DNA of 63,996 nt, filler included, from Craspedostauros australis (taxonomy: Eukaryota), in NCBI GenBank assembly GCA_030167865.1. It is 14 parts of 14 records of this genome, joined end to end, with 100 filler letters (N's around TTAATTAATTAA, not from the genome) between each part and the next. Parts side by side here need not be neighbours in the genome. Positions count along the whole stretch, not along the records: positions 7,162 to 24,836 come from JALAGF010004190.1; positions 24,937 to 32,523 come from JALAGF010004191.1; 12 more parts are not named here. The stretch is one strand, 5' to 3'. The notes under the pieces were generated by a model. It had not been told where the DNA came from, made no database searches, and worked only from the letters and a program-made list of their open reading frames with translations. A program made the translations under genes and the position numbers. Positions 7,062-57,000 of the stretch are shown in pieces; within the stretch, counting starts at the first letter, position 1, and each line of letters starts with the position of its first letter.

Positions 7062-7161
7062 NNNNNNNNNNNNNNNNNNNNNNNNNNNNNNNNNNNNNNN
7101 NNNNNTTAATTAATTAANNNNNNNNNNNNNNNNNNNNNNNNNNNNNNNNNNNNNNNNNNNN
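7062..7161. other. Artificial contig linker (44 N + TTAATTAATTAA + 44 N)
   Basis: The same 100-bp linker recurs at 24837, 32524, 34786, 37155, 39965, 41601, 43237, 48034, 54635, 58389, 61256 and 62721. It places stop codons in all six frames. Confidence 0.98.
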
Positions 7162-8870
7162 GACTCCTCGCGGCTGGTCTTCTTCACCCACTCCTCCCAT
7201 TCCTGGTTCTCTCCGCCGATCCACGGGGTGAGGATGAGGTTGTGCTTCTCGAGGTTGGGCACGAAGTCCTTCCACTCGGTCACCTTGACGACGTGAGCGT
7301 CGCGGACCTCCTTGGCCTTGGTGAACATGGCATCATGGATCTCATTCAGCTTGGTCACCAGGGCATCGCCCAATCCATCCACCGGCATGTCGATCTTGTC
7401 GCGGTTGTACCGGATGACGCAACGGCACGTGCCGCCCTCGATATCACGTGGTCCGACCTCGATGCGGATCGGGACACCCTTCTGCTCCCAGTGGGCATAC
7501 TTCCAACCTGGCTTGTAGATGCTGCGATCGTCGAACTTGACGCGGATGCCTTTCGACTTGAGATCCTTGAGGATGCTCTCGCAGTACGGAGCGGCGTCCT
7601 CCAACGTCAGCTTCTTGCTGACGATTGGCACGATGACCGCCTGTAATGGCGACACGCGTGGTGGCATCACCAGACCAGTGTCATCTCCGTGCACCATGAT
7701 CATGACGCCGATCGTTCGCGTGGTGATTCCCCACGATGTCTGCCAGACCACGTCGGACTCGCCCTTCTCGTTCTGGTAGGTGATGTCGAACATCTTTCCG
7801 AAGTTCTGGCCCAGATGGTGCGATGTGGCACCCTGGATGGCGCGTCCCGATGTGGGGATGTACGCCTCGACGGTGGTGGTCGATTGACCGCCGGCGAACT
7901 TTTCCTTCTCGGTCTTGTGTCCCGGGATGACAGGGACGCAGAGCAGATCCTGGTACACACGCTTGTACAAGTCCAGCGCCTTCATCACCATGTCGTTGGC
8001 CTCCTCGGAGGTGGCATGGGCTGTGTGGCCCTCCTGCCACAGGAATTCGCGAGTTCTGAGGAATGGGGTTGGATCCTTGAACTCCCATCGCACCACGTTG
8101 CTCCATTGGTTGAGCTTCAACGGAAGGTCTCTGTGCGATCGGATCCAATCGGAGTATGCTGGGTACATGATGGTCTCGGATGTTGGACGGATGGCAATTT
8201 GCTTGGCAAGGTCCGTGTCTCCGCTCTTTGTCACCCATGCGACCTCTGGGGAGAATCCTGCGACATGATCCTTCTCCTTCTCCAAACGATCTTGCGATAC
8301 GAACAGCGGGAAGTACGCATTCTCGACACCGAGTTCTTCGATCTGCGCGTCAACATATATGAATGCAAGTGTGTTGTGCGGCATCGTTTGGTGAGCATTA
8401 TTTGCGTGCCATTCATTCATTCATTCGTTCAATCAATCAATCCGTTTCATTCGTATCCGTTGTTGATTTGAAGAGTTCGTTCATGAGGAATGGAGAGAGA
8501 CAGAGAGAGCGAAAGAGTGGGTGCATTTGGAAGAGTAGCGGACCTATGAGCAAGCGATTGGAGTTCACACCAACACTATTCCGCATGACGCGACTCTCAT
8601 CCAACGAACGCTCCGCAAAGTCGCATCAAGTGACTTCGACAGGCACCACCCAGCAAACGAACGTACCTCCTTGTTGAACCAAGCTTGGATGAGCTCCCAG
8701 ATCTTGAAGGACCATGGACGCAGGATGTAGCACCCGCTGATGTCGTAGTAGGAGATCATCTCACTGAGGACGATGACATCGGAGTACCATTCTGGGAAGT
8801 TCTCCTCCTTCTTCCACTGCAGCTTCAGCAGCGTCTGCCCCTTCTTCGAGGCCTTCTTTGGGTTTGCCAT
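7162..8870 (-). CDS. proS: Prolyl-tRNA synthetase; 3'-partial, copy 2
   Basis: Matches 1-1709 at an offset of 7161. Exons 8870-8667 and 8342-7162. The upstream flank differs from copy 1. Confidence 0.95.
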
Positions 8871-9890
8871 TCTTCTTCTGTCGCGGTGTATCGGTATGTG
8901 TCTTTCGGTATCACCTTATTTCTTGCAACCTCTTGATGGACAGACTCTCGATCCAGCCGTTGAAGGTATGAACTAATGAGAGGATGAGGATGTGAAGATC
9001 TATTTTGTGATCTTTTGTTGCGTTTGCGTGTTGCCAACGGTTGTTTGCCATGACTTCTCGTTGTTCTCGTTGTTCTCGTTGTTCTTGGTGGTGATGGTCG
9101 GAACAAAACGATGACCTCGAGTCACAAGTGTCACAATTATTCAGTCGCGAGTTAACACGACTCATATTCATGACACGATTGAGTAACTGGAGTCAACCTC
9201 ATTCCGTCTTGAAACGGATATTACACACCCATTTTTACAGACAGACAGATAACTTTCAGTAGATGCGGTAAGTGGAACGGAATCGAAGTGGTCTTTCGTT
9301 CGCTTGTTGATCGTTTTGTTGGCTGGTTGGTTGTTGACCATGGTGGCGAGCTGGGAAGGAGAAATGCAGCAACGACAGCCTCACCATCGCCTGCAACAAC
9401 AGCACCGACAGCAACACCAAACCAGCATCGCAAACACCCGTATCTGAGGTAAGGACGATGGCGCGATGCCGCTTGTGCCGACCGTTCAGGCCAACCCGAC
9501 GACGTGAAGGACCGCGATGAGGCCCCACGAATATCAGCAACATTGGAGGGGTCTGTGGTCGAAGGGAGGATGCGGTGCGAGCGCTATTGCGCTTTCTCCA
9601 TCCAGATAAGGAAAGGACGGGACGGAGGTTGCGATGTCGGGCATGTCTGCAATGCGGTTGGAGTCCATCCCTACAACAGAGGTTGTTCTCGATGCGGAGC
9701 GACGATCATGAGCAGTAGGAAGAGCGTCAACCCACAGATAGCCCAGCCAAGCAATCAGCATTCTCACAAACAGCAATCATCTGCCTTCGTCCTTGTGCTC
9801 GATCCAACACACTCCTTTCACTCGCGAAAACACAATCATAACACAGGTCGAAAACACACGAATTCACACTCCGCACAACACACGCACAAG

Positions 9891-24768: not shown

Positions 24769-24941
24769 TAAAAATATTTGCATATGAAAGGAATATCGCC
24801 ATCCAAACCCTGACCTCCATCCAAAACGAGAAGTCTNNNNNNNNNNNNNNNNNNNNNNNNNNNNNNNNNNNNNNNNNNNNTTAATTAATTAANNNNNNNN
24901 NNNNNNNNNNNNNNNNNNNNNNNNNNNNNNNNNNNNTCGGG

Positions 24942-27062
24942 ATGGCCATCGGGCACTTCATCGCTGATGACCATACCTGTCTGGTCCGCCTCTCTGCCAA
25001 GTCGGAGGACGGCCACACTTTGCTATGTGCCAACCTGGCCGGTGAGTGCCGCCGCAGCAACCACCACGCCCTCCGTCGCGACCCAACCCGCCGGGGCCTT
25101 GCCGGGGTATATCAATGCCTCGACACCACTACGCTCGGCGGAGCGCCTCGTCGCGACCTCATCGAAGGCAGCCACCAGAGCCAAGCCGCGTACGACTCTA
25201 CGCGGGCCTCCGCATTACGCGATCTGGAAGCTGTCGGCCAAATGGACACCACCGCCCCTGCCGAACGCAACGACAGCGATGTCAAAACGGCGGGAGTGGT
25301 CGGCTTCGACCTCGACGTCAAACCAACGGGCCGTCCCGACACTGACCCGATGCCAACCCCACCGGTTCGCGTCAAGACCGACCCCGCGGCTCTGCCCCCG
25401 ACGCTCCATCATGCGCCGCCACCCAACCTCTCAACCATCCCGGCGGTGAAACCCGATCCCGCAATCCCACGCCCAGGTCTATCCTTCAGCCAGGGAACAA
25501 ACCTGTCTCCTCCTGCCTTGGCCACCACCGCAGCCGACGCACTCATGCATGTGGTGCGCCACCAAGCGTCTCTCAACCGAGAAGCAATGGAGGTGCACCA
25601 GCGCAAGACCGAGGAGACCACACACGCCATGCTGCGAGCTCTCGCAACCCAACAAGCACAGATCACACAGCTGATCCAACACGGGCGTCCCTCTACGCGC
25701 CCCACGCCTGTAACCTCTCCCTTCCCTGCTCCGGCTCCGGTCCCCACCACCGCGTGGTATGTGGCCATCGATGGCCGACGCCCAGGGGTGTACACCTCTG
25801 CGGCCGAAGCAATCTCCCAAGCCAGCCACGGGAGCGCAGCTCGCGTACTCCTCTGCGCAACCCACGCCGAAGCCGTAGCCTACCTCCAGGCATCTGCCCC
25901 AGCAGCGCCCAGCTACCACCAACCGGCCCCGCAATACCAGCCACACTCGGCCGAAGACACGCCCCCCGTATACCCACGAAACGCACCAGTCGAGTCCTCC
26001 CCGGCCTCTGACCCCCGTCCTGATCGCGCCCCGTCTGGCTCTGCCAGCATGGGCATCGAGAAGTTCTTAGGAGAAGACCCGTCAAAGGGAGACAAGAAGC
26101 TGATCTTTGGTGAGACCATCGACAACGAGCGCCGCATGCTCAAGCATCTGGCCCCACCGCACGCCAGCCACGAAGTCCAGACCGAGCTCGCTAAGGCAGC
26201 AATCGACGTTACCAGCCAACCAGGTAAGGTCACCGACGAACGCACCTCCATCGAAGAACTCGCCTCCGCCTTCGGAGACATCCGCAACCAGACCGCCCGC
26301 TCCGCCGGCCTCATCGCCGCAGACACCAACTGGCGCACCAAGACCCGCCACGCCCTCGGTCGCATCAAGTCCTCCGAAGACCTCAGCGAACTCGCGGGTG
26401 ACTTCAACAGCATCCGCGACGACGTGATGACTCGCTATCTCAACGATGTGAGTCACATCCTCCGCCACGGCTGCTACTCCGACGAGCAGATCACCATCTA
26501 CCAACAAGGCGGAGGATGGGTCGCTGTCCTCAAGCTCTTCCTCTCTTTCTACCACGAGCTCCTGCTCAAGGTCCAAGAGGAAGCGTTCAAGACCACGGAT
26601 GGATGGGACGAGTCAGCCTGTGTATACATCGAACACTACTCCAAGGCACTCTTTGACGCGCGCAACTTCGCCTCCTCGCGCAACCTCATGATCTTCCGCA
26701 CCTACATCATCGTGCGTGAAGGAGCGCGAGGCGGTTGGTGCAATCTCAAGATCCTTGAGAAGTTCCAACAACGCGCCGTCCGCACTCTCGGATCGAACCC
26801 GACACCAAAAGGGGACGCCGACAACTCTCCCTCCGATATGGGCAGAAAGAAGTGCAAGCACTGTGGCGGGTCCAACAAGGTCCACGAGATCCGGGACAGT
26901 GGGTGCCCCTTCGGGTACCTCTTCAAAAAGAAGGTGGCCATGGCAAAAGCCAAACAGGTCGCGAAGAGCGTCAACCAAGGCGAGAAGGCCGCCGACGTGA
27001 TCACACGCATTCTGCAGGAAGCAATTTCGAAGCGCGGAGGCGGAGAAGAGGATGATGCCTAA
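24942..27062 (+). CDS. ORF1, Gag-like, with an RNase H1 N-terminal (Cauli_VI) hybrid-binding domain and a CCHC-like knuckle
   Basis: WYVAIDGRRPGVYTSAAEA...ATHAEAVAYL at about 25755-25886, and CKHCGGSNKVHEIRDSGC near the C-terminus. The frame is open to the contig edge, so the ORF may be 5'-partial. Confidence 0.75.
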   Translation: MAIGHFIADDHTCLVRLSAKSEDGHTLLCANLAGECRRSNHHALRRDPTRRGLAGVYQCLDTTTLGGAPRRDLIEGSHQSQAAYDSTRASALRDLEAVGQMDTTAPAERNDSDVKTAGVVGFDLDVKPTGRPDTDPMPTPPVRVKTDPAALPPTLHHAPPPNLSTIPAVKPDPAIPRPGLSFSQGTNLSPPALATTAADALMHVVRHQASLNREAMEVHQRKTEETTHAMLRALATQQAQITQLIQHGRPSTRPTPVTSPFPAPAPVPTTAWYVAIDGRRPGVYTSAAEAISQASHGSAARVLLCATHAEAVAYLQASAPAAPSYHQPAPQYQPHSAEDTPPVYPRNAPVESSPASDPRPDRAPSGSASMGIEKFLGEDPSKGDKKLIFGETIDNERRMLKHLAPPHASHEVQTELAKAAIDVTSQPGKVTDERTSIEELASAFGDIRNQTARSAGLIAADTNWRTKTRHALGRIKSSEDLSELAGDFNSIRDDVMTRYLNDVSHILRHGCYSDEQITIYQQGGGWVAVLKLFLSFYHELLLKVQEEAFKTTDGWDESACVYIEHYSKALFDARNFASSRNLMIFRTYIIVREGARGGWCNLKILEKFQQRAVRTLGSNPTPKGDADNSPSDMGRKKCKHCGGSNKVHEIRDSGCPFGYLFKKKVAMAKAKQVAKSVNQGEKAADVITRILQEAISKRGGGEEDDA

Positions 27063-30000
27063 CCCTGTGTTTGTTTTGATTCTACCCTCTCTGTGCTCTC
27101 CACAACTCGTGCCAACCTCCACACCAACCAACACGGCCACTGACACCACGAACATCACGAACACCACAGACCCACACACCGATACCCAGACCGCTCCGAG
27201 CGACGAACTACTGAGCCATAAACTAGTAGACATCGTCGCAATATCCAAACAACAACTCCCCCAGTCCTCTGCTTGTTCTTTGCGTTATGCAACGCTGAAC
27301 TTCGGTCTGCACATGACTAGCAGCATCTGGCCAGCTTTCGAGCATGTCCTCTGCACCCACGACGATGGCCTACCCCAAGCCTTCCGAACCTACCCGGAAT
27401 CGACTCAATACCTCGGGGCGACGGCAAGAGTGTCCCACCGGATTTTGAACAAAATTCCAGTGGACTTTCTGATCGCTCACGGGGTACGAGGCACGGAATG
27501 GCGCGATTGGGTCCTCCACTGTCGAACCGATCTACGACCTCGACTAATCATCGAGATATGGACTGGGTCAGATATGGGGTGGGTACAACATGCAGCCTCT
27601 AAGCGAGAGTGTAAGCTCTGGACAGACCTCGGATATGGAACCCAGATCAAGACCCTACCCAATCAACGAATGGGCGGCGTGGTATCAGTGACGTACACGG
27701 TGGTGGTGAGGGCGGCAACAACGTGGACGGCATCTGGCATCGAATGGCCAGACCTCCAACCTGCATCTGAACGAAGCATGGCGAATTGTCTTCGTCACTG
27801 TGGAGTTCCGCGAAGATGCTATATAACGAAGAGCAACACCCAGCTGATCATCGACAGCGCGACATCCGCAATGCCGATGGACCGGCTCACCCTTATTCAG
27901 ACGGATAGAGGCGTCCGACGCCTCTTTCCAGACGAACTGGGGAAGGCCCTGGGTAGCTCGCTCCCCGGAGAGACGCTCAGGCATGTGAAATGGCGAGTGC
28001 TTTTCCACACTCCGTCACAACACCTGCTTGAGTACCTCTCCACACCGCTGGTGGTTTTGGCTACCCAAAACCACCAGCATCTCGAACACTCCCAACCCAC
28101 GACACGACCGACAAGACGACGACGACAACGACGACGACAACGACGACATCCCCAGCTCCAAACCAATCTCCAGGACGCCAACGACGACGAGCTATCATAC
28201 CAATGGGCCCCACCTGACCTATCTCCTGACGGCGACTGGCACCAACAACGCATACACAACCTACGAACAGCATGCGCACACTATGGTGACCGATCTCCGT
28301 CCTTATTCAAAGACGGAATCGAAGACTTACGCATCCATCGCACCAACTACACCGATACTCACCCTGATCCCAAACAGCTACGAGTGCTCTGGTGGGAATT
28401 TCCCCAACAACACTGGGACCACCTACGCGAAGGGAGTCCGATGAATTTTTTGGACACCCCGGAATTTGGCTATCACGACAACAACGACATGACTCCGGAG
28501 CAACAACAAGTGGCAGCAGACTTCGTTGACGAGCTTCTCAACCTTGGCGTCGTCGAACCGCAAGACCCCCTCCATCCAGTGGTCGTCAATGCTCCGTTAT
28601 TCGCCCTTCCCAAACCAATGCAACCTGATCAGTGGCGCATCATCGCCAATATGCGCGAGAACCGGGCGAACGAATTTATTGGGGCTGATCCGACCATCTT
28701 CCCAAAAAGCCGTGACATTTTGAAACAAATGTACCATGGTGGCTGGTCAGCGGTCGTTGACGCCTCAAAATATTTCTATCAATTCCGAACTCGCCCCGAC
28801 GAACGACGATTTCTCGGTATCCAGCACCCAATTTCGAAAGAAATGTACCAATACGCTGGACTACCGATGGGATCTAGCCAATCTCCGGCGATCGCATGCA
28901 AATTCGGCGCAGCCTTCCTCCGGCTACTGCGAGAACGCTCCACGCTCTACCAAGGGGACCACCAAGCCAACATGTGGTGGACGGCGTTCGACCAAGGACT
29001 CGACTACGACCACACTATGGGACAAGGAATTGTCGCCATCGGACCGGACGGACTACCAGCTGCCCTCGCATGGGCCCACTGCGATGACTTCATCATCCAT
29101 GGGCCCACCCGCCGCAAGACCACAGCAGCCCTTTCCGCATTCCTCGATCTATCGGTAGATTGCGGTCTGCTCTGCCACCCCGGCAAATTGACCCCACCTA
29201 ACCAGGTCGTCAAATACACAGGGCTCATCTTCGACACAACCGCCACGCCACGTCTCCGAATACCAACACTCAAACGAGACAAAATCGTCGCAGTGATGGA
29301 TTACGTCGAAGCCGCACCTACCCGAGTCTCCCGACTTGCCCTCGTGGTCCTGGCCGGCATGCTGGAGAGCGTGGCCGAAGCCACCCCATCGTACCTCGGC
29401 CGCAACTACCTGCGGTCCCTCTACGCGCTCGTACACCCAAGTGAGTGGGATCAACCCGACTTGCCATACTTCAGCTACACCACCATCACCCCGGCGGTCA
29501 TGCAAGACCTCCAATGGTGGCGCTCGGCACTCACCAACGACACAGCGCGGAGCGGTCGCGCAACTCGCACAGGCATCCTGGTGAGCAGCTTCGGCGACGG
29601 CAGTGGCACTGGCACTGGTGGGACCATCATCTTCCCGCATCAACCCTCTCACATGTGGATGGGCACCTGGTCCTCCCTCGTAGCAACCCGGCGTTCCTCC
29701 AACTGGAAAGAGCTACGCACTCTGCTCAGCACTCTGGAACAAGTGGCAAACAACCCCACATCCGCCGCAGACGTCTTCGGAGCCACTTTCTTTTACTTCA
29801 CGGACAACATGTGCACCTACTGCGTCGTCGACGGAGGCACCTCCACATCACCGGAACTACACAAACTGGTCTGGAAGATCAAGCAAGTCGAGCTTCGCCT
29901 ATCTTGTCACCTTCAGGTCATCCACATCCCCGGCACGGCCATCATCACAGAAGGAACCGACGGACTCAGCCGCGGGATATGGATCAACGCCGCCCATCAA

Positions 30001-30504
30001 CGACCGACGTCGACCCAAATCTTGGCCGCATGCCTAGCGCCGGCACCGCTCAAACAACATCACGTCGCCCACATCACCTCGCTCGCTTTCCCCGGCTCCC
30101 TCACACGTCCACTACTCTGTCGATGGGATCGCCCATGGGACTCACAGAAGTGCATGAACCACATCACCCTGTGGGCGCCACCTCCAGAACTGGCATACCA
30201 ACTGATCTACTTCCTGCTGGGGTGCTGGGCGGAACAACCAATGAGCACAGGATTCGTCATCCTCGTCCCAAGAGTTCTCCAACGCACCTACGTCCGTCTG
30301 TCCCGTCATCTCGTCCGGGTTGGGGTGTTCACCAACGACGATCTGCGTCTCTCCTCTACCTCTCCTCTCAACATTCCTCACCTACTCCTCCGTGTCTCTC
30401 CCCACACTCGTTCTCTCAACCCTCCCAGACTGGACTTTACTCCCCGCTCCAGGAATCGACGGCATCACCAACGGATCGCCGAGCATTTGCACGGGCTGCG
30501 CTAA
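27052..30504 (+). CDS. ORF2 Pol: degenerate C5-MTase-like domain + reverse transcriptase + RNase H + Dam-like MT domain
   Basis: RT: PLFALPK..WRIIAN, VDASKYFYQF, LPMGSSQSP, HCDDF, YTGLIFDT. RNase H: GDGSG, SNWKEL, FTDN, HIPG..TDGLSR. MT: LWAPPP..VILVP. Confidence 0.9.
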   Translation: MMPNPVFVLILPSLCSPQLVPTSTPTNTATDTTNITNTTDPHTDTQTAPSDELLSHKLVDIVAISKQQLPQSSACSLRYATLNFGLHMTSSIWPAFEHVLCTHDDGLPQAFRTYPESTQYLGATARVSHRILNKIPVDFLIAHGVRGTEWRDWVLHCRTDLRPRLIIEIWTGSDMGWVQHAASKRECKLWTDLGYGTQIKTLPNQRMGGVVSVTYTVVVRAATTWTASGIEWPDLQPASERSMANCLRHCGVPRRCYITKSNTQLIIDSATSAMPMDRLTLIQTDRGVRRLFPDELGKALGSSLPGETLRHVKWRVLFHTPSQHLLEYLSTPLVVLATQNHQHLEHSQPTTRPTRRRRQRRRQRRHPQLQTNLQDANDDELSYQWAPPDLSPDGDWHQQRIHNLRTACAHYGDRSPSLFKDGIEDLRIHRTNYTDTHPDPKQLRVLWWEFPQQHWDHLREGSPMNFLDTPEFGYHDNNDMTPEQQQVAADFVDELLNLGVVEPQDPLHPVVVNAPLFALPKPMQPDQWRIIANMRENRANEFIGADPTIFPKSRDILKQMYHGGWSAVVDASKYFYQFRTRPDERRFLGIQHPISKEMYQYAGLPMGSSQSPAIACKFGAAFLRLLRERSTLYQGDHQANMWWTAFDQGLDYDHTMGQGIVAIGPDGLPAALAWAHCDDFIIHGPTRRKTTAALSAFLDLSVDCGLLCHPGKLTPPNQVVKYTGLIFDTTATPRLRIPTLKRDKIVAVMDYVEAAPTRVSRLALVVLAGMLESVAEATPSYLGRNYLRSLYALVHPSEWDQPDLPYFSYTTITPAVMQDLQWWRSALTNDTARSGRATRTGILVSSFGDGSGTGTGGTIIFPHQPSHMWMGTWSSLVATRRSSNWKELRTLLSTLEQVANNPTSAADVFGATFFYFTDNMCTYCVVDGGTSTSPELHKLVWKIKQVELRLSCHLQVIHIPGTAIITEGTDGLSRGIWINAAHQRPTSTQILAACLAPAPLKQHHVAHITSLAFPGSLTRPLLCRWDRPWDSQKCMNHITLWAPPPELAYQLIYFLLGCWAEQPMSTGFVILVPRVLQRTYVRLSRHLVRVGVFTNDDLRLSSTSPLNIPHLLLRVSPHTRSLNPPRLDFTPRSRNRRHHQRIAEHLHGLR

Positions 30505-31951
30505 CGGCATCAACCGCCACACCACAGCACACCAATGTCATTTCGCTAACACCGGATTCACTCATGACGGCATCACATATCAACCATGTCATACACGGTA
30601 CCACAAACTATGCTGCCGAGTCGGACCTCCTTTCCGCACGCGCCTTCGCAATCACAAAGGTCTCGTTCTGCCAGCCAACCTACGCATTCTGGGTCTCTTC
30701 GTATGCGAAGCCTGCACGGTGCGAGTACACCTCCGACGCGAACTGATTGCCAGTCCAGCGGACCATCACCTACTCCGCCTCGAACGCATGCGGATCATCG
30801 ACCTCGCCCATAACTGGGCAGCGGGAACCCTGACCACATACGGGAGCAAGATCCAGGTGTTGCGGAGGTTTGGAATGCACTACGGCATCCCGACTCTACA
30901 ACTGCCCGATCTCCAAGCACCGCCCTACTCTGCAACGATCCCGATCATGTGGGCGCAAGAACACTACGCCACACAAACACCATCGCGCAGGGACCCACTT
31001 GGCGACACCACTCTCAAGTTCAGCACGGTCCGCGGCCTCCGCAGTGCCGCATCAGCTTTCTTGACATGGAACATGTGTCTCACCAATCCCGAACACGTCA
31101 CGCTCGACGCCAAGCAACGCCCCATCGTCGTGAATGAATGCCTTCCCACCGACCATCTCAGCTACTCTATGCTGACCCAGGGCATGCGGACGCGTCTTGG
31201 CGAAGACTCCAGGCCCTCCGCCGCCCTCCTTGCCCGACACGTTCACTTCATGGACCAATGCTTCCAACGCCAGTACCAACATGCGGCTACTCAACAACAG
31301 CGACAGACGGCGGCGATGGCAGGCGTCATCAACCTCGTGGGCTGGCTGGGCTGGCTACGAGCCTCCGAGGCCTTCGGCATCTCGTGGTCGGACGTCACGA
31401 TCCTTGAACCACGCAACGCAAGCAACAACGATCTCCCACCAAATACAGGCGCAGTCCTGCTACGCCTGGCTATGCAAACGAAGTCCGATCGCAGCCGCCA
31501 AGCCGATGTGGTCATCGCTTTCCGCTCGTCCTCAGGTCTCAGTCTCGGTGAATGGCTCCTCCGCGCACGGCGCGAACGAATTCAACAACTGCCAACTGAG
31601 CTGGTGGCACACCACCCCTCGGGACGACCATGGACGTCACACTTCTACCGTACGACGTTCACATACCCATCCCTGTTGGAGCAGCAGCAACGCGGCGACC
31701 CCTTTCTACGATCGGCCATCGGTGCACAGCAAATGCCCATTCCCACTCGGTTCTACTCCTTCCACATGTACCGACGAGGAGGACGCACACACGTCTCCAG
31801 GCAGAGATCGGGATGCATGCGAGCAGCCACCAAGCTCGAGGTCTCCGAACACGGCCGGTGGCGACGCCAACGGGCCAACGAAGATATGCCCACGGCATAC
31901 CTTCAGTGGCCACTTTCTGACCGGCTGGCAATCACCGCGCTCTGCATGTGA
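30320..31951 (+). CDS. ORF3 tyrosine recombinase with an N-terminal Cys/His zinc finger; true start unclear
   Basis: Catalytic set LRASE (R), TKSD (K), HMYR (HxxR), HGRW and PTAY (Y). The N-terminus has CTGC..C..CHTRYHKLC..FVCEAC. Confidence 0.88.
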   Translation: MGCSPTTICVSPLPLLSTFLTYSSVSLPTLVLSTLPDWTLLPAPGIDGITNGSPSICTGCANGINRHTTAHQCHFANTGFTHDGITYQPCHTRYHKLCCRVGPPFRTRLRNHKGLVLPANLRILGLFVCEACTVRVHLRRELIASPADHHLLRLERMRIIDLAHNWAAGTLTTYGSKIQVLRRFGMHYGIPTLQLPDLQAPPYSATIPIMWAQEHYATQTPSRRDPLGDTTLKFSTVRGLRSAASAFLTWNMCLTNPEHVTLDAKQRPIVVNECLPTDHLSYSMLTQGMRTRLGEDSRPSAALLARHVHFMDQCFQRQYQHAATQQQRQTAAMAGVINLVGWLGWLRASEAFGISWSDVTILEPRNASNNDLPPNTGAVLLRLAMQTKSDRSRQADVVIAFRSSSGLSLGEWLLRARRERIQQLPTELVAHHPSGRPWTSHFYRTTFTYPSLLEQQQRGDPFLRSAIGAQQMPIPTRFYSFHMYRRGGRTHVSRQRSGCMRAATKLEVSEHGRWRRQRANEDMPTAYLQWPLSDRLAITALCM

Positions 31952-32340
31952 TCGCCCGCCGCTCACTTTTTCGTTTGTTGTTCCTCTTTTTCTTCCACTT
32001 CTTTCTCTTTTGGGGGGGGGACCCTCTTTTTCGGCCGCCTACGACAGAAACAGGGGGTACCGAAAGGGAGATACTCTCCCTTTGCCAGGGACACCCGGCA
32101 AAATGGGTCGAATTAGTCTATTTTGGAGCCTACTGACCCAGCCAATCAAAACTCGTGGTTTTTGCGATGACAAAAAACCCCGCACGAGGAATGTTCTCGA
32201 ATCAAATTTTCGTTCTCAGGAACTCTTTGAAGGTCATAGCTTCCAGTTTTATTTATGGGAAAACCATGGAGAAACTCCGAAAATGACTCTGCAATACTGT
32301 GCCTTGATTTAATCCCGACCAGTCGTGCGAAAACCGAACC

Positions 32341-32520
32341 CTCGATTTTAATAGCCGTCATTCGATTTATTTATCCGTCATTCGATTTAAATATCCGTCA
32401 TTTGATTTATTTATCCGTCATTCGATTTTAATATCCGTTATTCGATTTATTTATCCGTCATTCGATTTTAATATCCGTCATTCGATTTATTTATCCGTCA
32501 CTCGATTTATTTAGTTATCA
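32341..32520 (+). repeat. 20-bp tandem repeat, 9 units, with two alternating variants
   Basis: TTCGATTTATTTATCCGTCA alternates with TTCGATTTTAATATCCGTCA up to the contig end. Confidence 0.95.
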
Positions 32521-32623
32521 ATCNNNNNNNNNNNNNNNNNNNNNNNNNNNNNNNNNNNNNNNNNNNNTTAATTAATTAANNNNNNNNNNNNNNNNNNNNN
32601 NNNNNNNNNNNNNNNNNNNNNNN

Positions 32624-37254: not shown

Positions 37255-39964
37255 TTTGAACCATACATCGCTGTCAGCGCGGCACGAGGTGAATCCGAGC
37301 GAGTCTCTGAGTGTCTCTGCGAGATGTGCCCTCCAAGCTGCGCCACTCGACTTCAGTCCGTAGAGTGCTCGACAGATGACGGCAATCTTTCCGGCGTCTT
37401 CTCCGAATTCAGGTCCACACGTCGTGTATACCTGTTCACGACATGGTGCATTCAGATAGGCGTTCATCACGTCGGCTGCTTGTACGTCGAGATCGTTGAG
37501 TGCTGCGAGAAGGAATGCGATTCGAACACTTTCGCGTGTGACCACACTCGCGTATGTGATGCTTGATGGCGTCTCCGTCATGTGGCCTCCGGCAACGAGC
37601 CGTGCCTTTCGTGTGAGATCGACCTTGATATCGAATATCATATGACATTCAATGTATGTGTGACCGATTGGTGGCTTGGTGTCTTCGCTCTTGATTGAAA
37701 ATGCTGGACGGACGTTCTTCATTTCCCGTTCGAGTGCCTTGCGCCATAAGTCGGTGCCTGTCTCCTCGTCAATAGCAAGTGCGCGTTGTACCGTCTTCGG
37801 CAACTCGAGGCCATATTTTTCGTTTCGTCTGAAGTATCGTTTCTGGTTTGCCATAATGATCCTGTTTCGTCGCTTCAAAGTGTAAGGAACCCACCAACGG
37901 AAAGCGGGCTCATGAGCAAGATTGTTGACGTCTGCGTATTCGGCTGTCTTGACTGGGTCGGCCTCCTTCGCGTCTCTCAAATGAATCCACGATGTGGACC
38001 CGTCCTTCCACAGTATACATAGCTTCCATCCCTTGGTTGACTTGGTTGTGGTGGTGTCGTTGACGTTTGCTGCCGTTGGTAGTTTCTTGTGATCGATGAT
38101 GTCTTCCATGAGTAGTGTCGTGTATCCGTCTTCATCCATCCGTGCGTATATGCTGTTCGCGATTTGGTTTGCGTTGTAGACTTCGCTGTGTCCGTCAATG
38201 AATTCAACCTCGTACATAGAAGTGTCAAGAAAAGGATTTGTGTGAGAACGACCAATCAACTGTCCGCTTGCATCGCGCTTGCGACGTTTCACGGTTCCGT
38301 ACTGCATGTCATCGCCAGTGGACAATAACACTCGTGCAGATAGATATCGATCGTATGCATCAGTCTCCGCATCTGCAGAATCTGACAATGGTTGCAAAGG
38401 TTGTTGTTGTTCGAGGAAAGCAATGTCTTCGGCGGTATCATCGACATCATCGCCGTCGTCTTCAGGTTGGATGCCTTCCATTCGATCTTTCCATTTCGAC
38501 TGTAGCTTGGACATGTAATCGGCCTGTCTCTGCTTGATCGCTTCACTGTTCTGGTCGGCAACGGACAAAGGAATCACAGAAGATTTAGAAACAACAACGC
38601 CGGATTGGGTGAGAACATACGAGCACATTGCCTCTCCCACGGTTCGTGAAGGACCGAGGTAGCGACCGAGATGCTTCGTATTCATTTCAGCATCTTGTGG
38701 ATTGATGTACCACACAAAGTCGAACCACCCAAATTCAGAAATGTGTGAGATGTCGGCTGTGTCACCAGTCAGAATCGTCGTTGGTGTCTGACCATGCAGA
38801 TCGTAGATTTGTAATGCAGTGTTGCTTCGGATCTCGGCGCAATACTCGAAGCAATAATCCCATAGATATGCTGGTGTGTTTGTGGATGTCATGAGTCGAC
38901 GGTAGTGACGTCTGAGCTCACGAATTGTCGCTTCAGCCTTGTTCTGATTGTGAATGTAGGCTTCGATTGGTCGGAGTGAGACCTGAGCCTTGAGAAGTTT
39001 CGCTCTGAAGTCGCCCTCGACAAGCTCTTTCGCATTATCTGGTATCATGGTGTGTGGAATTCCGTAGTCTCTGAACAATTCGTCAAGTGTCTGTGCAGCT
39101 TCGCGTCGGGCTGCCATTGGGTACACTCGGACCCAATGAAACGGCGTACAATAGATCATGGCACACTTGTTTCCGCGTATGGACTTTGTCTTCGCGATCA
39201 TCGTATCCGTGTACATCTTGGTGTTGAGGCGGCGATATCGAAGTTGCATTGCATATGGAACCAAACGACGTGTCCCCGTTGTCGTGCTGAAGTCTCTGAC
39301 AGCCAATTGTGTTGTGACGCCAAGCGTGCGCCGTGCTGCTTCAATACCGATGCGCCATCTTGCCGCCAGCTGCTCTGGCGTAACCGTCCCCTTTCGATTG
39401 GAGGTACGTGCATGTTGAATGGAATGTATTTCGCGTTGACATGTAAGTGATGAAATGTGTTGCATCTGCTTTTCTGACTCAAGCTTGGTACGAATGGACG
39501 CCTCGTCGTCCCCTGTCGACAGCTGGGCTGGATCCCAATACTGATCGGATGTCATATAGACGTGTACGCAATCATGGTCGGACCTAATTTCGTCCTGTGT
39601 AGGTTTGCGTATATGGAAGTATGAAACTGTACCATGTAGCTGAAGAGGAATATGCAGATCGTAATGTGAATGAAGAATAGAATGTGAGTGTGCATGGCGC
39701 TCATCCTCCGGCAACATCGTGAGAGGTGTTTCATTGATTGTAACGCCAGCCATGCGCAATTGGTGTGGACACAACAGCGGATGTTGTAAATTGTCGAAGT
39801 ATAACGATTGAGGAAAGAAGAGAATGTAAGTCGTGTACGAGATCGGATCATCATATGCAATTGCCGCTGTAACAATGGGTACGTTCTCGACGTCTCCCAA
39901 TGTGTCCAAAAATGGTGATGTTGTGACAGTTTGTGAGGTACGATGCACAATGTAAGCAGATGGT
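37255..39964 (-). mobile_element. Ty1/copia (CoDi-like) pol fragment: integrase, chromo-like domain, RT start
   Basis: Open frame across the whole contig. Integrase D (YTDTM), D (PDNAKE) and E (QNKAE) precede RT motifs KARLVAGGH, ADVMNAYL and ALYGLKSSG, which is the copia domain order. Confidence 0.92.
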
Positions 39965-40064: not shown

Positions 40065-41600
40065 TACACTTTGAAGCGACGAAACAGGATCATTATGGCA
40101 AACCAGAAACGATACTTCAGACGAAACGAAAAATATGGCCTCGAGTTGCCGAAGACGGTACAACGCGCACTTGCTATTGACGAGGAGACAGGCACCGACT
40201 TATGGCGCAAGGCACTCGAACGGGAAATGAAGAACGTCCGTCCAGCATTTTCAATCAAGAGCGAAGACACCAAGCCACCAATCGGTCACACATACATTGA
40301 ATGTCATATGATATTCGATATCAAGGTCGATCTCACACGAAAGGCACGGCTCGTTGCCGGAGGCCACATGACGGAGACGCCATCAAGCATCACATACGCG
40401 AGTGTGGTCACACGCGAAAGTGTTCGAATCGCATTCCTTCTCGCAGCACTCAACGATCTCGACGTACAAGCAGCCGACGTGATGAACGCCTATCTGAATG
40501 CACCATGTCGTGAACAGGTATACACGACGTGTGGACCTGAATTCGGAGAAGACGCCGGAAAGATTGCCGTCATCTGTCGAGCACTCTACGGACTGAAGTC
40601 GAGTGGCGCAGCTTGGAGGGCACATCTCGCAGAGACACTCAGAGACTCGCTCGGATTCACCTCGTGCCGCGCTGACAGCGATGTATGGTTCAAACCTGGA
40701 GAGACGAGCGATGGGTCAAAGTATTACGAGTACATCCTCGTGTACACTGACGACATACTTGCCATATCCAAGGACCCGCGCGCTTTGCTCTCACAAATTG
40801 ATTCTTTCTTTCTACTCAAACCCAAATCCATCGGTCCACCAACATCATACCTCGGTTCAACCATTGCTCCCTTCCATCTGAAAGCAGAGCCTGAGCGGCC
40901 CAAGTGGAGCATGGGATCACAACGCTACATTCGAGAAGTCATCAAGATGGTCAAACACTGGCTCGAAGAACGTGGTGGCAGATTCCGCAACACTGCGTCA
41001 TGCGTCCTGCCAAATGGATATCGTCCAGAACTTGACTCGACATCCTTGTGTGATCCTGAAGAGATGAACTACTACCAACAGATGATCGGAATATTGAGGT
41101 GGATCGTTGAGCTGGGGCGAATCGACATATGCTGCGAAACGAGCATGATGTCAACATACTGTGCAGCGCCACGAACTGGTCACTTGCGTGCTCTCTTTCA
41201 CATCTTCTCTTATTTGAACTCACATGACCGATCACGACTGGTCTTTGATGACGCCTACATCGAAAAGGGCAACATCCAGACTCCGGATTGGACTTCTTTC
41301 TATCCTGATGCACGCGAACTGATACCTCAAGACATGCCGGAACCGAGAGGCAAGGAAGTGCAAATGACGTGTTTTGTTGATGCGGATCATGCTGGTGACC
41401 AAGTCACTCGCAGATCACGCACAGGTGTTTTGCTTTGTTTAAATTCCTCACCCATCCTATGGTACAGCAAGAAGCAGAACGGCATCGAGACTTCTACATT
41501 TGGTTCAGAATTCACAGCACTCAAGACAGCCATGGAGATTGTGATTGGCATGAGATACAAGCTTCGAATGATGGGTGTTCCTTTGGATGGACCAGCCGAC
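40065..41600 (+). mobile_element. Ty1/copia RT-RNase H fragment with an intact frame
   Basis: VYTDD, GRIDI, FVDADHAG..TRRSRTG and SKKQ..ETSTFGSEF. Its first ~630 bp are the reverse complement of 37255-37885. Confidence 0.93.
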
Positions 41601-41700: not shown

Positions 41701-43236
41701 TACACTTTGAAGCGACGAAACAGGATCATTATGGCAAACCAGAAACGATACTTCAGACGAAACGAAAAATATGGCCTCGAGTTGCCGAAGACGGTACAAC
41801 GCGCACTTGCTATTGACGAGGAGACAGGCACCGACTTATGGCGCAAGGCACTCGAACGGGAAATGAAGAACGTCCGTCCAGCATTTTCAATCAAGAGCGA
41901 AGACACCAAGCCACCAATCGGTCACACATACATTGAATGTCATATGATATTCGATATCAAGGTCGATCTCACACGAAAGGCACGGCTCGTTGCCGGAGGC
42001 CACATGACGGAGACGCCATCAAGCATCACATACGCGAGTGTGGTCACACGCGAAAGTGTTCGAATCGCATTCCTTCTCGCAGCACTCAACGATCTCGACG
42101 TACAAGCAGCCGACGTGATGAACGCCTATCTGAATGCACCATGTCGTGAACAGGTATACACGACGTGTGGACCTGAATTCGGAGAAGACGCCGGAAAGAT
42201 TGCCGTCATCTGTCGAGCACTCTACGGACTGAAGTCGAGTGGCGCAGCTTGGAGGGCACATCTCGCAGAGACACTCAGAGACTCGCTCGGATTCACCTCG
42301 TGCCGCGCTGACAGCGATGTATGGTTCAAACCTGGAGAGACGAGCGATGGGTCAAAGTATTACGAGTACATCCTCGTGTACACTGACGACATACTTGCCA
42401 TATCCAAGGACCCGCGCGCTTTGCTCTCACAAATTGATTCTTTCTTTCTACTCAAACCCAAATCCATCGGTCCACCAACATCATATCTCGGTTCAACCAT
42501 TGCTCCCTTCCATCTGAAAGCAGAGCCTGAGCGGCCCAAGTGGAGCATGGGATCACAACGCTAAATTCGAGAAGTCATCAAGATGGTCAAACATTGGCTC
42601 GAAGAACGTGGTGGCAGATTCCGCAACACTGCATCATGCGTCCTGCCAAATGGATATCGTCCAGAACTTGATTCGACGTCCTTGTGTGATCCTGAAGAGA
42701 TGAACTACTACCAACAAATGATCGGAATATTGAGGTGGATCGTTGAGCTGGGGCGGATCGACATATGCTGCGAAACGAGCATGATGTCAACATACTGTGC
42801 AGCGCCACGAACTGGTCACTTGCGTGCTCTCTTTCACATCTTCTCTTATTTGAACTCACATGACCGATCACGACTGGTCTTTGATGACGCCTACATCGAA
42901 AAGGGCAACATCCAGACTCCGGATTGGACTTCTTTCTATCCTGATGCACGCGAACTGATACCTCAAGACATGCCGGAACCGAGAGGCAAGGAAGTGCAAA
43001 TGACGTGTTTTGTTGATGCGGATCATGCTGGTGACCAAGTCACTCGCAGATCACGCACAGGTGTTTTGCTTTGTTTAAATTCCTCACCCATCCTATGGTA
43101 CAGCAAGAAGCAGAACGGCATCGAGACTTCTACATTTGGTTCAGAATTCACAGCACTCAAGACAGCCATGGAGATTGTGATTGGCATGAGATACAAGCTT
43201 CGAATGATGGGTGTTCCTTTGGATGGACCAGCCGAC
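41701..43236 (+). mobile_element. Second copy of the same copia RT-RNase H fragment, with a premature stop
   Basis: Same ends as 40065-41600. TAC>TAA at 42562-42564. Confidence 0.92.
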
Positions 43237-54634: not shown

Positions 54635-54757
54635 NNNNNNNNNNNNNNNNNNNNNNNNNNNNNNNNNNNNNNNNNNNNTTAATTAATTAANNNNNNNNNN
54701 NNNNNNNNNNNNNNNNNNNNNNNNNNNNNNNNNNATCACACGATCTGAATTGCAACG

Positions 54758-56239
54758 ATGAACACAACAACAACGACAGACACGTTGATGGACTTTGACT
54801 TGGCAATGGCATTGCGAGACAACATCGCAGATGCGATCGTCATCTCATTGGCACTTGCGGTGGGATGGGTTGTCGTCGTCTTGAGCAGACCACCCGCCAA
54901 GGATGCCCCTGCGAAGAGTCCTGCTGGGATCATGGAGTCCGTCAAGATGTTTGGATCATCCGAAGCACCATGGTGGCATCTCCAGCTGCAAGAATCCTTG
55001 GGATCGTCTATCTTCCAACACAACCTCCCGATCCGTGGTGGCACGTACGTGCTCTGCGCTGCGAAAGATCAGCGCGAGGTTATGCTTGACAAGACGACTG
55101 ACAAGCCGTTGCAACTCTATTCGAATTTCGACAGTATCATGGGACGCAAACAAATGATTTCGCGCTCAACATTCAGCCCTCTCTTCAAGAAGATGAGGAA
55201 GAGCGTCTCACACTCATTTTCCTCTTCGGATATCAACCGGATGAAATCCATCTGCACGAAGTATGTCGAAGAATGGGAAACAGAGTTCCTCGAGAAGATA
55301 GTGGATACTGATGCCACATTCGATCCATCTTTCGAACTAACAGGGATCGTATTCAAGACCATCATGGAGGCGGCCTTCGAATACAAGTCGACTTCCGAAG
55401 ACTTCGACTCGTTCGCGTCCAACTTTGAGGTGGCTGCCATTGAACTCACTTTCCGTCAAGCTACTAATCCCTTGCGGAAGGTATTCGGTTTTCTGATCCC
55501 AGAAGTATGGGCAGCGCACAAATGCAGCTCCCACTTGAGGGGCTTCGTGAAGACGGTCTTGGAAGCTTACCGCAAGAATCCCAACAAGTCGGAGAGCACC
55601 ACTGTGATCAAAGTGGTTGAGTCCAATCCGTACGATATGTCCGATGAAGAGAAGGTTGCGGAGCTACTTATTTGGCTCATTGGTGGTTTCGAGACGACGG
55701 GATACACACTCGCCAGCACCATTACGTTGCTTGCAAAACACCCGAAGGAGATGAAAGACCTGCAGCAATCGTTGTTGCAGGGTGATCCGACACAATCCAA
55801 GGATCATCTCAAGCGTGTGATCACCGAATCTCAACGAGTGATCCCTGTTGCTGCAATGGGGTCGGCTCGCTTCACCGGCCGTGATTTCATCTTTTTCGAT
55901 GAACCCTCCAACCGCAAGGTCAAGATTCCGAAAGGCGCCTCTGTGTTTCTTCCACAGATCACGGCCCACCGAGACGGGATGGTGTTCGAAGATGCTGGGC
56001 AGTTCAAACCTGGTCGATGGAAGAATCCGACCAAGGAAATGACACACAGCATCCTGGGATTCGCCTTGGGCAACCGCGACTGTCCTGGTCGATCGATGGC
56101 AATCGCTGAGCTCTACTTGATATTGTCAAGAATCTTGTCCAAGTACGAGTTCGAAGTAGTGGAGGAAGGCAGCTTATTCTTTTTCATGTTATTGAAGTAC
56201 GCCGATACCAAGCTTCGTGTGAAGAGGGTGAAGCCTTGA
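54758..56239 (+). CDS. Cytochrome P450, copy 1
   Basis: N-terminal TM anchor, I-helix GGFETT, ESQR (ExxR), FKPGRW and heme motif FALGNRDCPG. Confidence 0.95.
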   Translation: MNTTTTTDTLMDFDLAMALRDNIADAIVISLALAVGWVVVVLSRPPAKDAPAKSPAGIMESVKMFGSSEAPWWHLQLQESLGSSIFQHNLPIRGGTYVLCAAKDQREVMLDKTTDKPLQLYSNFDSIMGRKQMISRSTFSPLFKKMRKSVSHSFSSSDINRMKSICTKYVEEWETEFLEKIVDTDATFDPSFELTGIVFKTIMEAAFEYKSTSEDFDSFASNFEVAAIELTFRQATNPLRKVFGFLIPEVWAAHKCSSHLRGFVKTVLEAYRKNPNKSESTTVIKVVESNPYDMSDEEKVAELLIWLIGGFETTGYTLASTITLLAKHPKEMKDLQQSLLQGDPTQSKDHLKRVITESQRVIPVAAMGSARFTGRDFIFFDEPSNRKVKIPKGASVFLPQITAHRDGMVFEDAGQFKPGRWKNPTKEMTHSILGFALGNRDCPGRSMAIAELYLILSRILSKYEFEVVEEGSLFFFMLLKYADTKLRVKRVKP

Positions 56240-57000
56240 GGAGGAGTACGAAATAGTTGTCGCTAAGCTACAGCAAATTTTACATGTATTCGATCGTTTC
56301 AGAATCACTCTCATTTCATCAATCGCAATTTCATCTTTCATTGTGAACCCTTCAAGCGCAAGGTCAAGATCCTGAACGGTACCACAGTCTCTCTTGTGCA
56401 GACTACCTCCCACCGTGTCACGAATGATCACGTTTCGCAACACATCGCTGCCACGTCATTTTTCTGATTGTTCCTGGTTTATGTCACACCCGATAGATCC
56501 AGCATCAATGATACATCTTAATCTAGAGACACACAGAACAATTATGGCTCAATGCAAGACGCAGTCAGTCCTTGAGTAGTACTATTCAGATGATCTTGCT
56601 GAATGACGTCATTGTTCATTTCCGTTCTATCGACAGCCGTACGTTGTTGTCTCCCGCACTGGAAGTATTACTTACGGAGTACGAATAGAATAGCCCACGG
56701 AGCACCAATGATGGTAGCAGGAGATGCATTGCAGTTTTGGCGGTCCGGATCACTGCCGTTGGTGGCGGCGACAGAACGGAATAATGGTCGATCATGCGCG
56801 GAAGCAACCATCCATCGATTGGCCATCAATCGGACTTTCGTGACACATCCGCCACCAACGAAGGTTGCCTTCTTCGTTCACCCCATGCCACATACTCCCC
56901 ACGAGCATGATCAGATCACGCATCGACCCCACGCATTCCTCACACAATCTCACAAATCGAACAAAGGAAACACCAACATCACACGATCTGAATTGCAACG

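Follow-up and report, generated by a model that had tools for sequence, protein, structure and literature searches.

A probable internal part of a DIRS-order tyrosine-recombinase retrotransposon, with a methyltransferase-like fold heading its pol, in Craspedostauros australis

We analysed a stretch of 63,996 nucleotides (nt) from the Craspedostauros australis assembly GCA_030167865.1, hereafter the window, and found that its third contig (contig 3, JALAGF010004191.1) very probably represents the interior of a DIRS-order retrotransposon with a tyrosine recombinase (YR). Its genes are ordered much as in Ngaro elements, and its relatives form a very large family, mostly without annotation, in diatom-labelled and marine or aquatic metagenome sequence. 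Judged from its reading frames and motifs, the coding capacity of this copy is intact. The interest of the element lies chiefly at the level of the family, which shares a predicted DNA-methyltransferase (DNMT) fold without its nucleophile, a zinc-finger recombinase and a dual-coding junction between the pol and recombinase genes.

Results

Three long stop-free open reading frames (ORFs), which a first, sequence-only reading of this DNA had reported, follow one another on contig 3, with lengths of 706 and 1150 amino acids (aa) for the first two and 568 codons from stop to stop for the third (Table 1). Using a stop probability of 0.031 per codon derived from base composition, the log10 probability of such open frames is about -9.7 for ORF1, -16.0 for ORF2 and -7.8 for ORF3. 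Each successive ORF lies in the +1 frame relative to the preceding one, and the start of ORF2 overlaps the stop of ORF1 by 11 nt. The true start of ORF1 is uncertain, because no in-frame stop separates its ATG from the contig edge. In the 22 related loci of at least 7.8 kb, pol and YR are always syntenic (22/22), and the gene order is gag-pol-YR in 13, a wrap-around pol-YR-gag in 2 and pol-YR in 7. Two rearranged loci were also seen: L034 passes directly from the beginning of pol into mid-YR, and in L048 the similarity to the family stops some 190 nt after a second gag has begun, the next 2.4 kb being unrelated DNA that contains a 491-codon ORF; deletion derivatives, nested insertions or chimeric assemblies are possible explanations for both.

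The junction between pol and YR ties the two genes together at the level of single nucleotides. The conserved pol terminus (WHxxQAExxRGL followed by the stop) and the conserved YR start (G-T/I-x-N-R/K...CxGC) are encoded by the same bases, with YR read in the +1 frame. Of 70 family pol ends examined, 65 have the finger motif of the recombinase spanning the pol stop in the +1 frame and none has it in the other frame; YR was in the +1 frame relative to pol in all 19 loci (19/19). The pol/YR overlap is about 260 nt in this copy and roughly 20-470 nt in relatives. Because the gag-pol-YR order, the +1 position of YR and the dual-coding junction occur together, the three ORFs belong to one element and are not neighbouring genes. 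One relative, P0298 (967 aa), carries the C-terminal half of pol (the end of the reverse transcriptase (RT), RNase H and the C-terminal domain) in frame with the zinc-finger recombinase, and it is either a natural pol-YR fusion or the result of a one-base indel. These junctions, taken with the irregular ATGs described below, would fit a family in which some copies start YR translation internally and others use a +1 shift. In P0313, YR is preceded by a partial RNase H match.

ORF3 is predicted, from its modelled structure and its motifs, to be a tyrosine recombinase of the Cre/Xer/lambda type. The AlphaFold (AF2) model, built on 43 sequences, had a predicted local distance difference test (pLDDT) score of 88.3; because it starts at residue 95, the first CxxC of the finger is missing from it, and the result for the catalytic domain is unaffected. 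A Foldseek search with this model retrieved Cre (E 4.5e-5, probability 1.0) as well as XerH, the Tn1549 and lambda integrases and Flp (probability 0.9-1.0), and with VIA-align the C-terminal domain was superposed on residues 131-314 of Cre with a Z of 15.9 and a root-mean-square deviation of 2.8 Å over 174 residues. The full catalytic set named by the sequence-only reading is present in this copy: in an alignment of 23 YR homologues, R372, K413 and W539 were invariant and R510, H536 and Y552 were conserved in at least 90%, and H507 of the HxxR motif, present here, was variable across the family. The claim of a zinc-finger recombinase was likewise borne out by a Cys/His-rich N-terminus with seven Cys invariant in 34 YR sequences and H120 retained by 90% or more of 23. 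Searched against the PDB, the finger profile matched only the MID1 B-box (E 0.014) and FYVE (4.7), and single family members matched C1_1 at 4.7e-4 and PHD at 0.022 over the finger. The finger therefore seems only weakly like B-box, PHD or C1 domains as far as its sequence goes, and its type is left as 'cross-brace'.

At the other end of the coding region, the N-terminal part of pol is predicted to form a whole C5 DNA-methyltransferase fold, including the target-recognition domain. The AF2 model of its approximately 270 residues (pLDDT 83.6) matched M.HhaI best in Foldseek (E 1.3e-12, TM 0.63-0.65 over about 320 columns), followed by DNMT2, M.HaeIII, M.MpeI and DNMT3A, with 243 PDB matches at E<=0.001. 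The domain had been read from the sequence as a pseudo-DNMT, and the family alignment agrees with this: the catalytic Pro-Cys is found in none of the 97 alignable relatives at the site that we take to be motif IV, and no Cys is positionally conserved in the 98 aligned pols (one of them misaligned). At this site, the family reads PVDLLVV-E/D-x-G and this copy reads IPVDFLIAHGV (H-G-V). The ENV-like residues E185/W187 are kept in 95 of the 98 aligned pols and R237 in 97. Pfam DNA_methylase (PF00145) matched none of 26 family pols, and PHROGs gave only single-member weak matches for the same 26, including phrog_116 'DNA methyltransferase' at E 0.011 in one of them. At 28047-28078, in the part of ORF2 that separates the DNMT-like fold from a linker of low complexity rich in Arg and Gln, there is a perfect inverted repeat of 14 nt with a loop of 4 nt (GCTGGTGGTTTTGG/CCAAAACCACCAGC).

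The RT in the middle of pol was matched by RVT_1 in all 26 family pols (best E 4.3e-10), this copy giving E 4.1e-5, below the gathering score, and the family pol profile matched the Ty3 RT (E 7e-5) and the MMLV RT. On these profile matches, we regard the RT identity as secure. Motif C contains the HCDD that had been reported for this copy. Used alone, the pol of this copy had 0 matches in the PDB by phmmer, and NCBIfam returned 0 families for the 26 pols. From four acidic residues (D866, E904, D935 and D987), which are invariant in alignments of 26 and 31 pols, and from the position after the RT, we infer that an RNase H follows. No rve (DDE) integrase was reported by Pfam for this copy or for the 26 pols.

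The gag-like ORF1 is linked to the family by its C-terminal half (aa 375-675), which is similar to the ORF preceding pol in 13 of the 22 long relatives, and a CCHC pattern near the gag C-terminus was found, using the strict pattern, in 11 of 18 family gag ORFs, ORF1 among them. A hybrid-binding domain had also been proposed for the element. In this copy the match to PF01693 (Cauli_VI) falls short of the Pfam cutoff (E 0.17, 12.6 bits vs 21), and the proposal holds instead for 3 of 14 relatives, in which the domain lies above the cutoff at the same gag position (L041 1.3e-19, L048 1e-5 and L076 2e-4).

Table 1 Features of contig 3 and its 5' boundary (positions count along the window)
Feature	Position	Strand	Basis or detail
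Contig-joining linker N44-TTAATTAATTAA-N44	24837..24936	.	Artificial; bounds contig 3 at its 5' side, outside the element
ORF1, gag-like	24942..27062	+	706 aa, counted from an ATG 5 nt past the contig edge
RNase H1-type hybrid-binding-domain-like segment of ORF1, aa 273-315	25755..25883	+	Cauli_VI, sub-threshold
CCHC-type zinc knuckle of gag, CKHCGGSNKVHEIRDSGC	26853..26906	+	Pattern C-x2-C-x3-9-H-x3-8-C
ORF2, pol polyprotein	27052..30504	+	1150 aa from ATG; 1167 codons stop to stop from 27001
Predicted C5 DNA-methyltransferase-fold domain (pseudo-DNMT), pol aa ~95-362	27283..28086	+	AF2 model and Foldseek
Reverse transcriptase core, pol aa 566-743, motif C AHCDDF	28696..29229	+	RVT_1
Putative RNase H, pol aa ~860-995	29578..29985	+	Acidic residues and position after RT
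Conserved pol C-terminal domain of ~160 aa, fold not assigned	30013..30501	+	Alignment, 'W[FA]PPPE...VPR...WHxxQAExxRGL'
ORF3, predicted tyrosine recombinase	30245..31951	+	568 codons stop to stop; conserved protein from ~C82 (30488)
Dual-coding pol/YR overlap	30473..30504	+	Pol end ...HLHGLR-stop and finger CxxC (ICTGCA) share bases, YR in +1
Cross-brace zinc finger, C82 C85 C98 C115 H120 C123 C154 C157	30488..30715	+	Alignment
Predicted recombinase catalytic domain, aa ~322-568, R372 K413 H507 R510 H536 W539 Y552	31208..31948	+	AF2 and Foldseek
G9 run after a pyrimidine tract, 60 nt past the YR stop	32012..32020	+	Comparison with relatives
Tandem array, 20-nt unit TCGATTTa/tTTATCCGTCAT-like	32322..32521	+	Runs into the contig end

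The family to which these proteins belong is large. We collected 48 YR homologues at 37-49% identity and 255 pol homologues at E<=0.001, the best 120 of the 255 being 43-53% identical to this copy, and at least 481 of 598 candidate metagenome loci were confirmed. At 50% identity the YR sequences form 1,640, 1,126 and 477 clusters at E<=1e-3, 1e-10 and 1e-30, respectively; the best 150 matches of the representative-library search for YR are family members only, and this search yields the family size and no outgroup. Where family members are labelled, the label is diatom, as for the Cylindrotheca closterium protein P0162. The three best Atlas clusters for YR are labelled Bacillariophyta (score 0.98), lower rows carry Phage_integrase, core-binding and ALOG/Phage_integrase labels, and two diatom-labelled relatives (P0149 and P0168) lie on long contigs of 243 kb and 1.02 Mb. 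Two relatives, P0037 and P0147, were deposited as 'MAG: bacterium' and 'MAG: Plesiomonas shigelloides'; they are most likely eukaryotic contigs mis-binned into bacterial bins.

The repeat architecture of the family was seen in relatives. In L029, block A (1-130) equals A' (8010-8139) and block B (7224-7350) equals B' (8154-8280); the first B copy begins just after the YR stop, and the second B follows the second A. In L041, the B block is duplicated at the contig end. These are split direct repeats of the A1-[ORFs]-B1A2B2 pattern, the Ngaro/PAT/VIPER type. The relatives that show them have 35-45% protein identity to this copy and come from short-read metagenome assemblies. Exact end overlaps of 111-127 nt were found in 5 of the 22 long contigs, which were therefore assembled as circles with a unit of about 8.4-10.2 kb, and in four further contigs (L014, L034, L047 and L048) YR is followed by about 1-1.5 kb of non-coding sequence and then by gag. 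No inverted repeat of at least 40 nt was found by self-BLAST in the 22 relatives.

Inside contig 3, the search for terminal or inverted repeats returned only the 20-nt tandem array and matches of chance size. By comparison with the relatives, contig 3 probably lacks several hundred bases, namely the remaining part of B, all of A and the 5' leader. The B block begins at a GGGGGAA run in L029 and L041, and G-runs follow the YR stop in many relatives; we propose that the G9 run of this copy may mark where the internal B repeat begins, or may serve as a primer site of polypurine-like type. The 20-nt tandem array is probably the reason that the assembly broke here. Tandem arrays with unrelated units of about 20 to 173 nt also occur downstream of YR in L019, L021, L024, L029, L031 and L080, which suggests a conserved habit and not a conserved sequence. 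As a candidate cis motif of the family, GGGAGATACTCT after the YR stop was rejected, since among 81 loci it is common to L041 only.

The window is composed of 14 short contigs (1.2-17.7 kb) and 13 identical 100-nt linkers (N44-TTAATTAATTAA-N44), located at 7062-7161, 24837-24936, 32524-32623 and at ten more places, and any context read across a linker is artificial. An additional 60-N gap lies at 63219-63278. The element sits alone on contig 3 (24937-32523, 7,587 nt, unplaced), and because it occupies all of that contig, the window holds none of its termini or flanks. The sequence-only reading had placed the element at 24937..32150; the first of these positions is simply the first base after the linker, and the element reaches beyond 32150 up to 32523, where the tandem array meets the next linker. 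That reading had also set a CpG-rich element against decayed transposable element (TE) fragments elsewhere, and neither side of this contrast was upheld. Copia-type RT (RVT_2) fragments at 37255-39964, 40065-41600 and 41701-43236 have frames open over 903 and 512 codons (the whole contig) and 287 codons (much of the contig), and these pieces are cut by contig ends. The observed/expected CpG ratio of the element, 1.05, lies within the range of the remaining 13 contigs (0.66-1.21), of which 10 reach 0.85 or more, and the element is thus not set apart by its CpG richness.

Several contigs of the window share ends. Contigs 1 and 2 are 100% identical over 1,718 nt (1-1718 vs 7162-8879) and both begin with the same tRNA-synthetase ORF, contigs 4 and 5 are 100% identical over 1,113 nt, and further identical ends join contigs 6, 7 and 8 as well as contigs 9 and 10 (630 and 508 nt), some of them inverted. 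Over their full 1,536 nt, contigs 7 and 8 share 99.5% identity. In contig 11 (54735-58388), the first 1,411 nt recur exactly at the contig end, and this duplication results in two cytochrome P450 ORFs (54749-56239 and 56992-58388). The contigs with shared ends look like assembly leftovers, alternative branches or haplotigs of one assembly graph.

Discussion

As shown here, contig 3 can be read with good confidence as the coding part of a DIRS-order retrotransposon. Several observations, however, weigh against this reading. First, the recombinase is not seen by sequence profiles: Pfam assigns no family to ORF3, Phage_integrase (PF00589) is unmatched in 23 of 23 YR members at E<=1, and the PDB sequence-profile matches at E<=10 include no YR, only antibody and B-box noise. 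The RNase H region similarly has no Pfam match in the 26 pols and no relevant PDB profile match. Second, ORF3 has no in-frame ATG before M182 (30788), which lies after the zinc finger; by hand count, an in-frame ATG precedes the conserved YR start in 39 of 66 family copies, and by script count an ATG lies at least 30 codons upstream of the G127 equivalent in 43 of the 66. Third, the DNMT-like domain of this copy is only 23-30% identical to those of relatives and departs from them at conserved positions, carrying V230, Y232 and A97 in place of Q (92 of 98), R (85 of 98) and G (75 of the 78 with a residue at that position), respectively. Finally, neither end of the element is on contig 3, the repeat architecture is taken from relatives, and the A-B-A-B pattern was seen in only 2 of 80 loci, the others being uninformative or assembled as circles.

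Some of these points would suit an immobile relic, that is, a single, non-autonomous or domesticated copy whose frames are still open by chance and which does not belong to a young active family. We consider this explanation rather unlikely, and it is the strongest of the three that we weighed. The young, possibly active family proposed by the sequence-only reading was, for its part, not confirmed from the single copy on this contig. The window holds one copy of the element and no second one by blastn, and contig 3 is an unplaced leftover without termini. Among the candidates from a collection of 5.8 billion proteins, the nearest are only 53% (pol) and 49% (YR) identical, none being closer, and an exact-sequence look-up of four ORF versions found them absent from that collection; this absence says little, because TE proteins on unplaced contigs are often missing there. 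The DNMT-like domain has lost Q230, R232 and G97, which the family conserves, and from its sequence it appears more eroded than that of the family. Stop-free frames of 706, 1150 and 568 codons are, however, unexpected in a long-dead copy, and the catalytic residues of RT, the putative RNase H and YR are all in place. The absence of an ATG ahead of the zinc finger is shared: in 19 of the 66 family rows, this copy included, the open stretch before the finger has no ATG, and this state may function through a +1 shift or a non-AUG start.

If the element were instead a strict member of the PAT/DIRS1 group, the conserved domain of about 160 aa after RNase H would be a degenerate Dam-type methyltransferase (MT), with the N-terminal DNMT fold as an extra. 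The domain does occupy the position of the MT in DIRS1/PAT pol (PMC3266345, PMC4157794), and the gag zinc knuckle and split direct repeats would also fit Pat1-like elements. By eye, its 'TLWAPPPE...ILVPRVLQRTY' resembles 'VWLNPPYS...MLLPADNSTAW' of phage T1 Dam, and in the Atlas the top named cluster for pol aa 1005-1167 (eukaryotic, nematode-labelled) has PF05869 Dam assigned to 11% of its members; its score of 0.87 is under the Atlas bar of 0.9. The assignment is nevertheless unsupported by profile comparison: none of the 26 pols has Pfam Dam (PF05869) at E<=0.1, NCBIfam found none, and hhalign gave a probability of 0.2% with T1 Dam alone and 0.3% with a 15-sequence T1-type alignment, aligning a segment other than the one seen by eye. 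Because the Dam reference is shallow (T1 relatives 61-98% identical; the 15-sequence alignment 62-86% to the T1 protein), the hhalign test is weak and not decisive, and we judge membership in this group improbable.

Least probable of all is that contig 3 is not a chromosomal host insertion and represents a stray contig assembled from an episomal circle, a tandem array or the DNA of a second organism in the culture: it is unplaced and holds the element only, its GC content (57.5%) is higher than that of several neighbouring contigs, and five relatives assemble as circles by their end overlaps with four more continuous from YR into gag, but other contigs of the window are similar in GC (0.55-0.56) and CpG, the collapse of split direct repeats or multi-copy elements in a short-read graph gives the same circles, the extra A-to-B adjacency of L029 and L041 is not predicted by a simple circle or tandem, and diatom-labelled relatives lie on the two long contigs mentioned above.

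Taking contig 3 as part of a DIRS-order retrotransposon, a replication cycle can be proposed. A full-length RNA would be translated into gag and pol, and the recombinase could be produced by initiation at an internal ATG close to the pol stop, present in many relatives and absent from this copy, or alternatively by a +1 shift that yields a pol-YR fusion. The RT and RNase H would make complementary DNA (cDNA), and the A1-[ORFs]-B1A2B2 repeats, as found in two relatives, would let a complete circular or circle-junction form be regenerated, which the recombinase would then insert by site-specific recombination and not by DDE integration. The dead DNMT fold would be kept under selection, most plausibly to bind nucleic acids or flip bases, or to act as a decoy for, or partner of, the host 5-methylcytosine (5mC) machinery, and not to methylate. 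The zinc finger may steer the choice of target or chromatin.

It is also conceivable, and in our view rather doubtful, that the family represents an undescribed YR retrotransposon lineage of superfamily level, abundant in diatoms and other marine protists and defined jointly by three features. The first would be a dead C5-methyltransferase fold under selection at the head of pol, which would bind or flip bases in cDNA or target DNA, or would counter or exploit host 5mC silencing; the second, a recombinase with a cross-brace finger that reads chromatin or DNA; and the third, a conserved +1 shift at the dual-coding junction leading to a pol-YR fusion. Transposons are the main targets of 5mC in some hosts, which makes the question of a dead methyltransferase sharper: what does a retroelement gain from a nucleophile-less DNMT fold that is kept across a family with at least 1,640 YR clusters? 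The dual-coding pol/YR junction likewise offers a concrete site for the question of recoding. In addition, since YR and the DNMT fold are unseen by Pfam, domain-based TE pipelines would see a weak RT alone and misfile such elements.

The present combination of accessory domains, which the sequence-only reading did not recognise from described elements, had no matching description in the literature searched either; Repbase and the bioRxiv supplements lie outside that search, and because Repbase is outside the comparison, 'undescribed' is provisional. In the diatom repeat tables consulted, DIRS stands only as a category: the Phatr3 table gives 14 annotations and 18 kb (PMC5859163), the F. cylindrus table has it as a category, and C. 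tenuissimus has 'Gypsy/DIRS1'.

Compared with CryptonS elements of oomycetes and Phaeodactylum (Kojima and Jurka 2011, PMC3212892), the present element shares a eukaryotic YR in a stramenopile host, and oomycete 'core-binding domain' clusters are among the Atlas look-alikes of its YR. Cryptons, however, encode no gag or RT, whereas the present YR is joined to a retroelement through the junction that is dual-coding in 65 of 70 cases.

DIRS1-like and PAT-like elements share with it gag, RT/RNase H (RNase H being putative here) and YR, with overlapping pol and YR frames (PMC3266345; Szitenberg et al. 2014, PMC4157794), and a gag zinc finger as in Pat1-like elements and the split direct repeats seen in relatives of this copy are further likenesses to PAT. 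The pol of DIRS1-like and PAT elements has its MT after RNase H (PMC3266345, PMC4157794). The gag-RT/RH/MT-YR layout of DIRS, to which the element had been compared, does not hold here: gag, RT and YR are present, no Dam-type MT was detected after RNase H, and the methyltransferase-like fold is of the C5 type and lies upstream of RT. Unlike DIRS1-like elements, the 22 long relatives have no inverted repeats of the size searched. Long pol/YR overlaps are described for DIRS1-like elements (Piednoël et al. 2011, PMC3266345), whereas the present overlap is dual-coding and short and does not extend far across the pol ORF. Motif C of the RT reads xVDD in the family and HCDD in this copy, as compared with YL/IDD in DIRS1-like elements.

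By the theme of methyltransferases, the closest described element is SymbioDIRS-Dnmt3 of Symbiodinium dinoflagellates, whose Dnmt3 is detected by Pfam, keeps its catalytic positions and methylates CG sites de novo (de Mendoza et al. 2018, PMC5890265). Both are DIRS-type YR retrotransposons with a cytosine-methyltransferase domain (here a predicted fold) within Pol and A-coding-B-A-B repeats (here seen in relatives), and the RT is too divergent for the Pfam seed in the present element, as the authors of PMC5890265 note of theirs. In contrast, the present fold lacks Pro-Cys in the 97 alignable relatives and has no Pfam match, M.HhaI and DNMT2 outrank DNMT3A in the fold search, and the host group differs. 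Retrotransposons with DNA-methyltransferase domains have become a theme only recently, and the enzymes of the known examples look active, as is the case for SymbioDIRS-Dnmt3 itself and Gypsy-Dnmt3 (PMC5890265) and for Dam-bearing DIRS and LTR elements (2026 preprint).

By gene order, by the repeat type of the relatives and by having no detectable MT of the Dam type, the closest described layout is that of Ngaro. Ngaro elements likewise have three ORFs in the same orientation (gag-like, RT/RNase H, with the RNase H putative here, and YR), no DDE integrase and no detectable Dam-type MT, and they share the A1-[ORFs]-B1A2B2 pattern with internal repeats downstream of YR, which is seen here only in the relatives L029 and L041 and is known from Ngaro, PAT and VIPER elements (PMC8547959, PMC4157794, PMC6681497). 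The Ngaro elements of the stramenopile Cafeteria burkhardae have a unit of about 6 kb and a YR recognised by PF00589 (PMC8547959). In contrast, circular assemblies of the present family measure about 8.4-10.2 kb, its YR bears an N-terminal zinc finger and is unmatched by PF00589, and its pol adds a predicted N-terminal C5-methyltransferase fold and an extra conserved C-terminal domain to the Ngaro plan.

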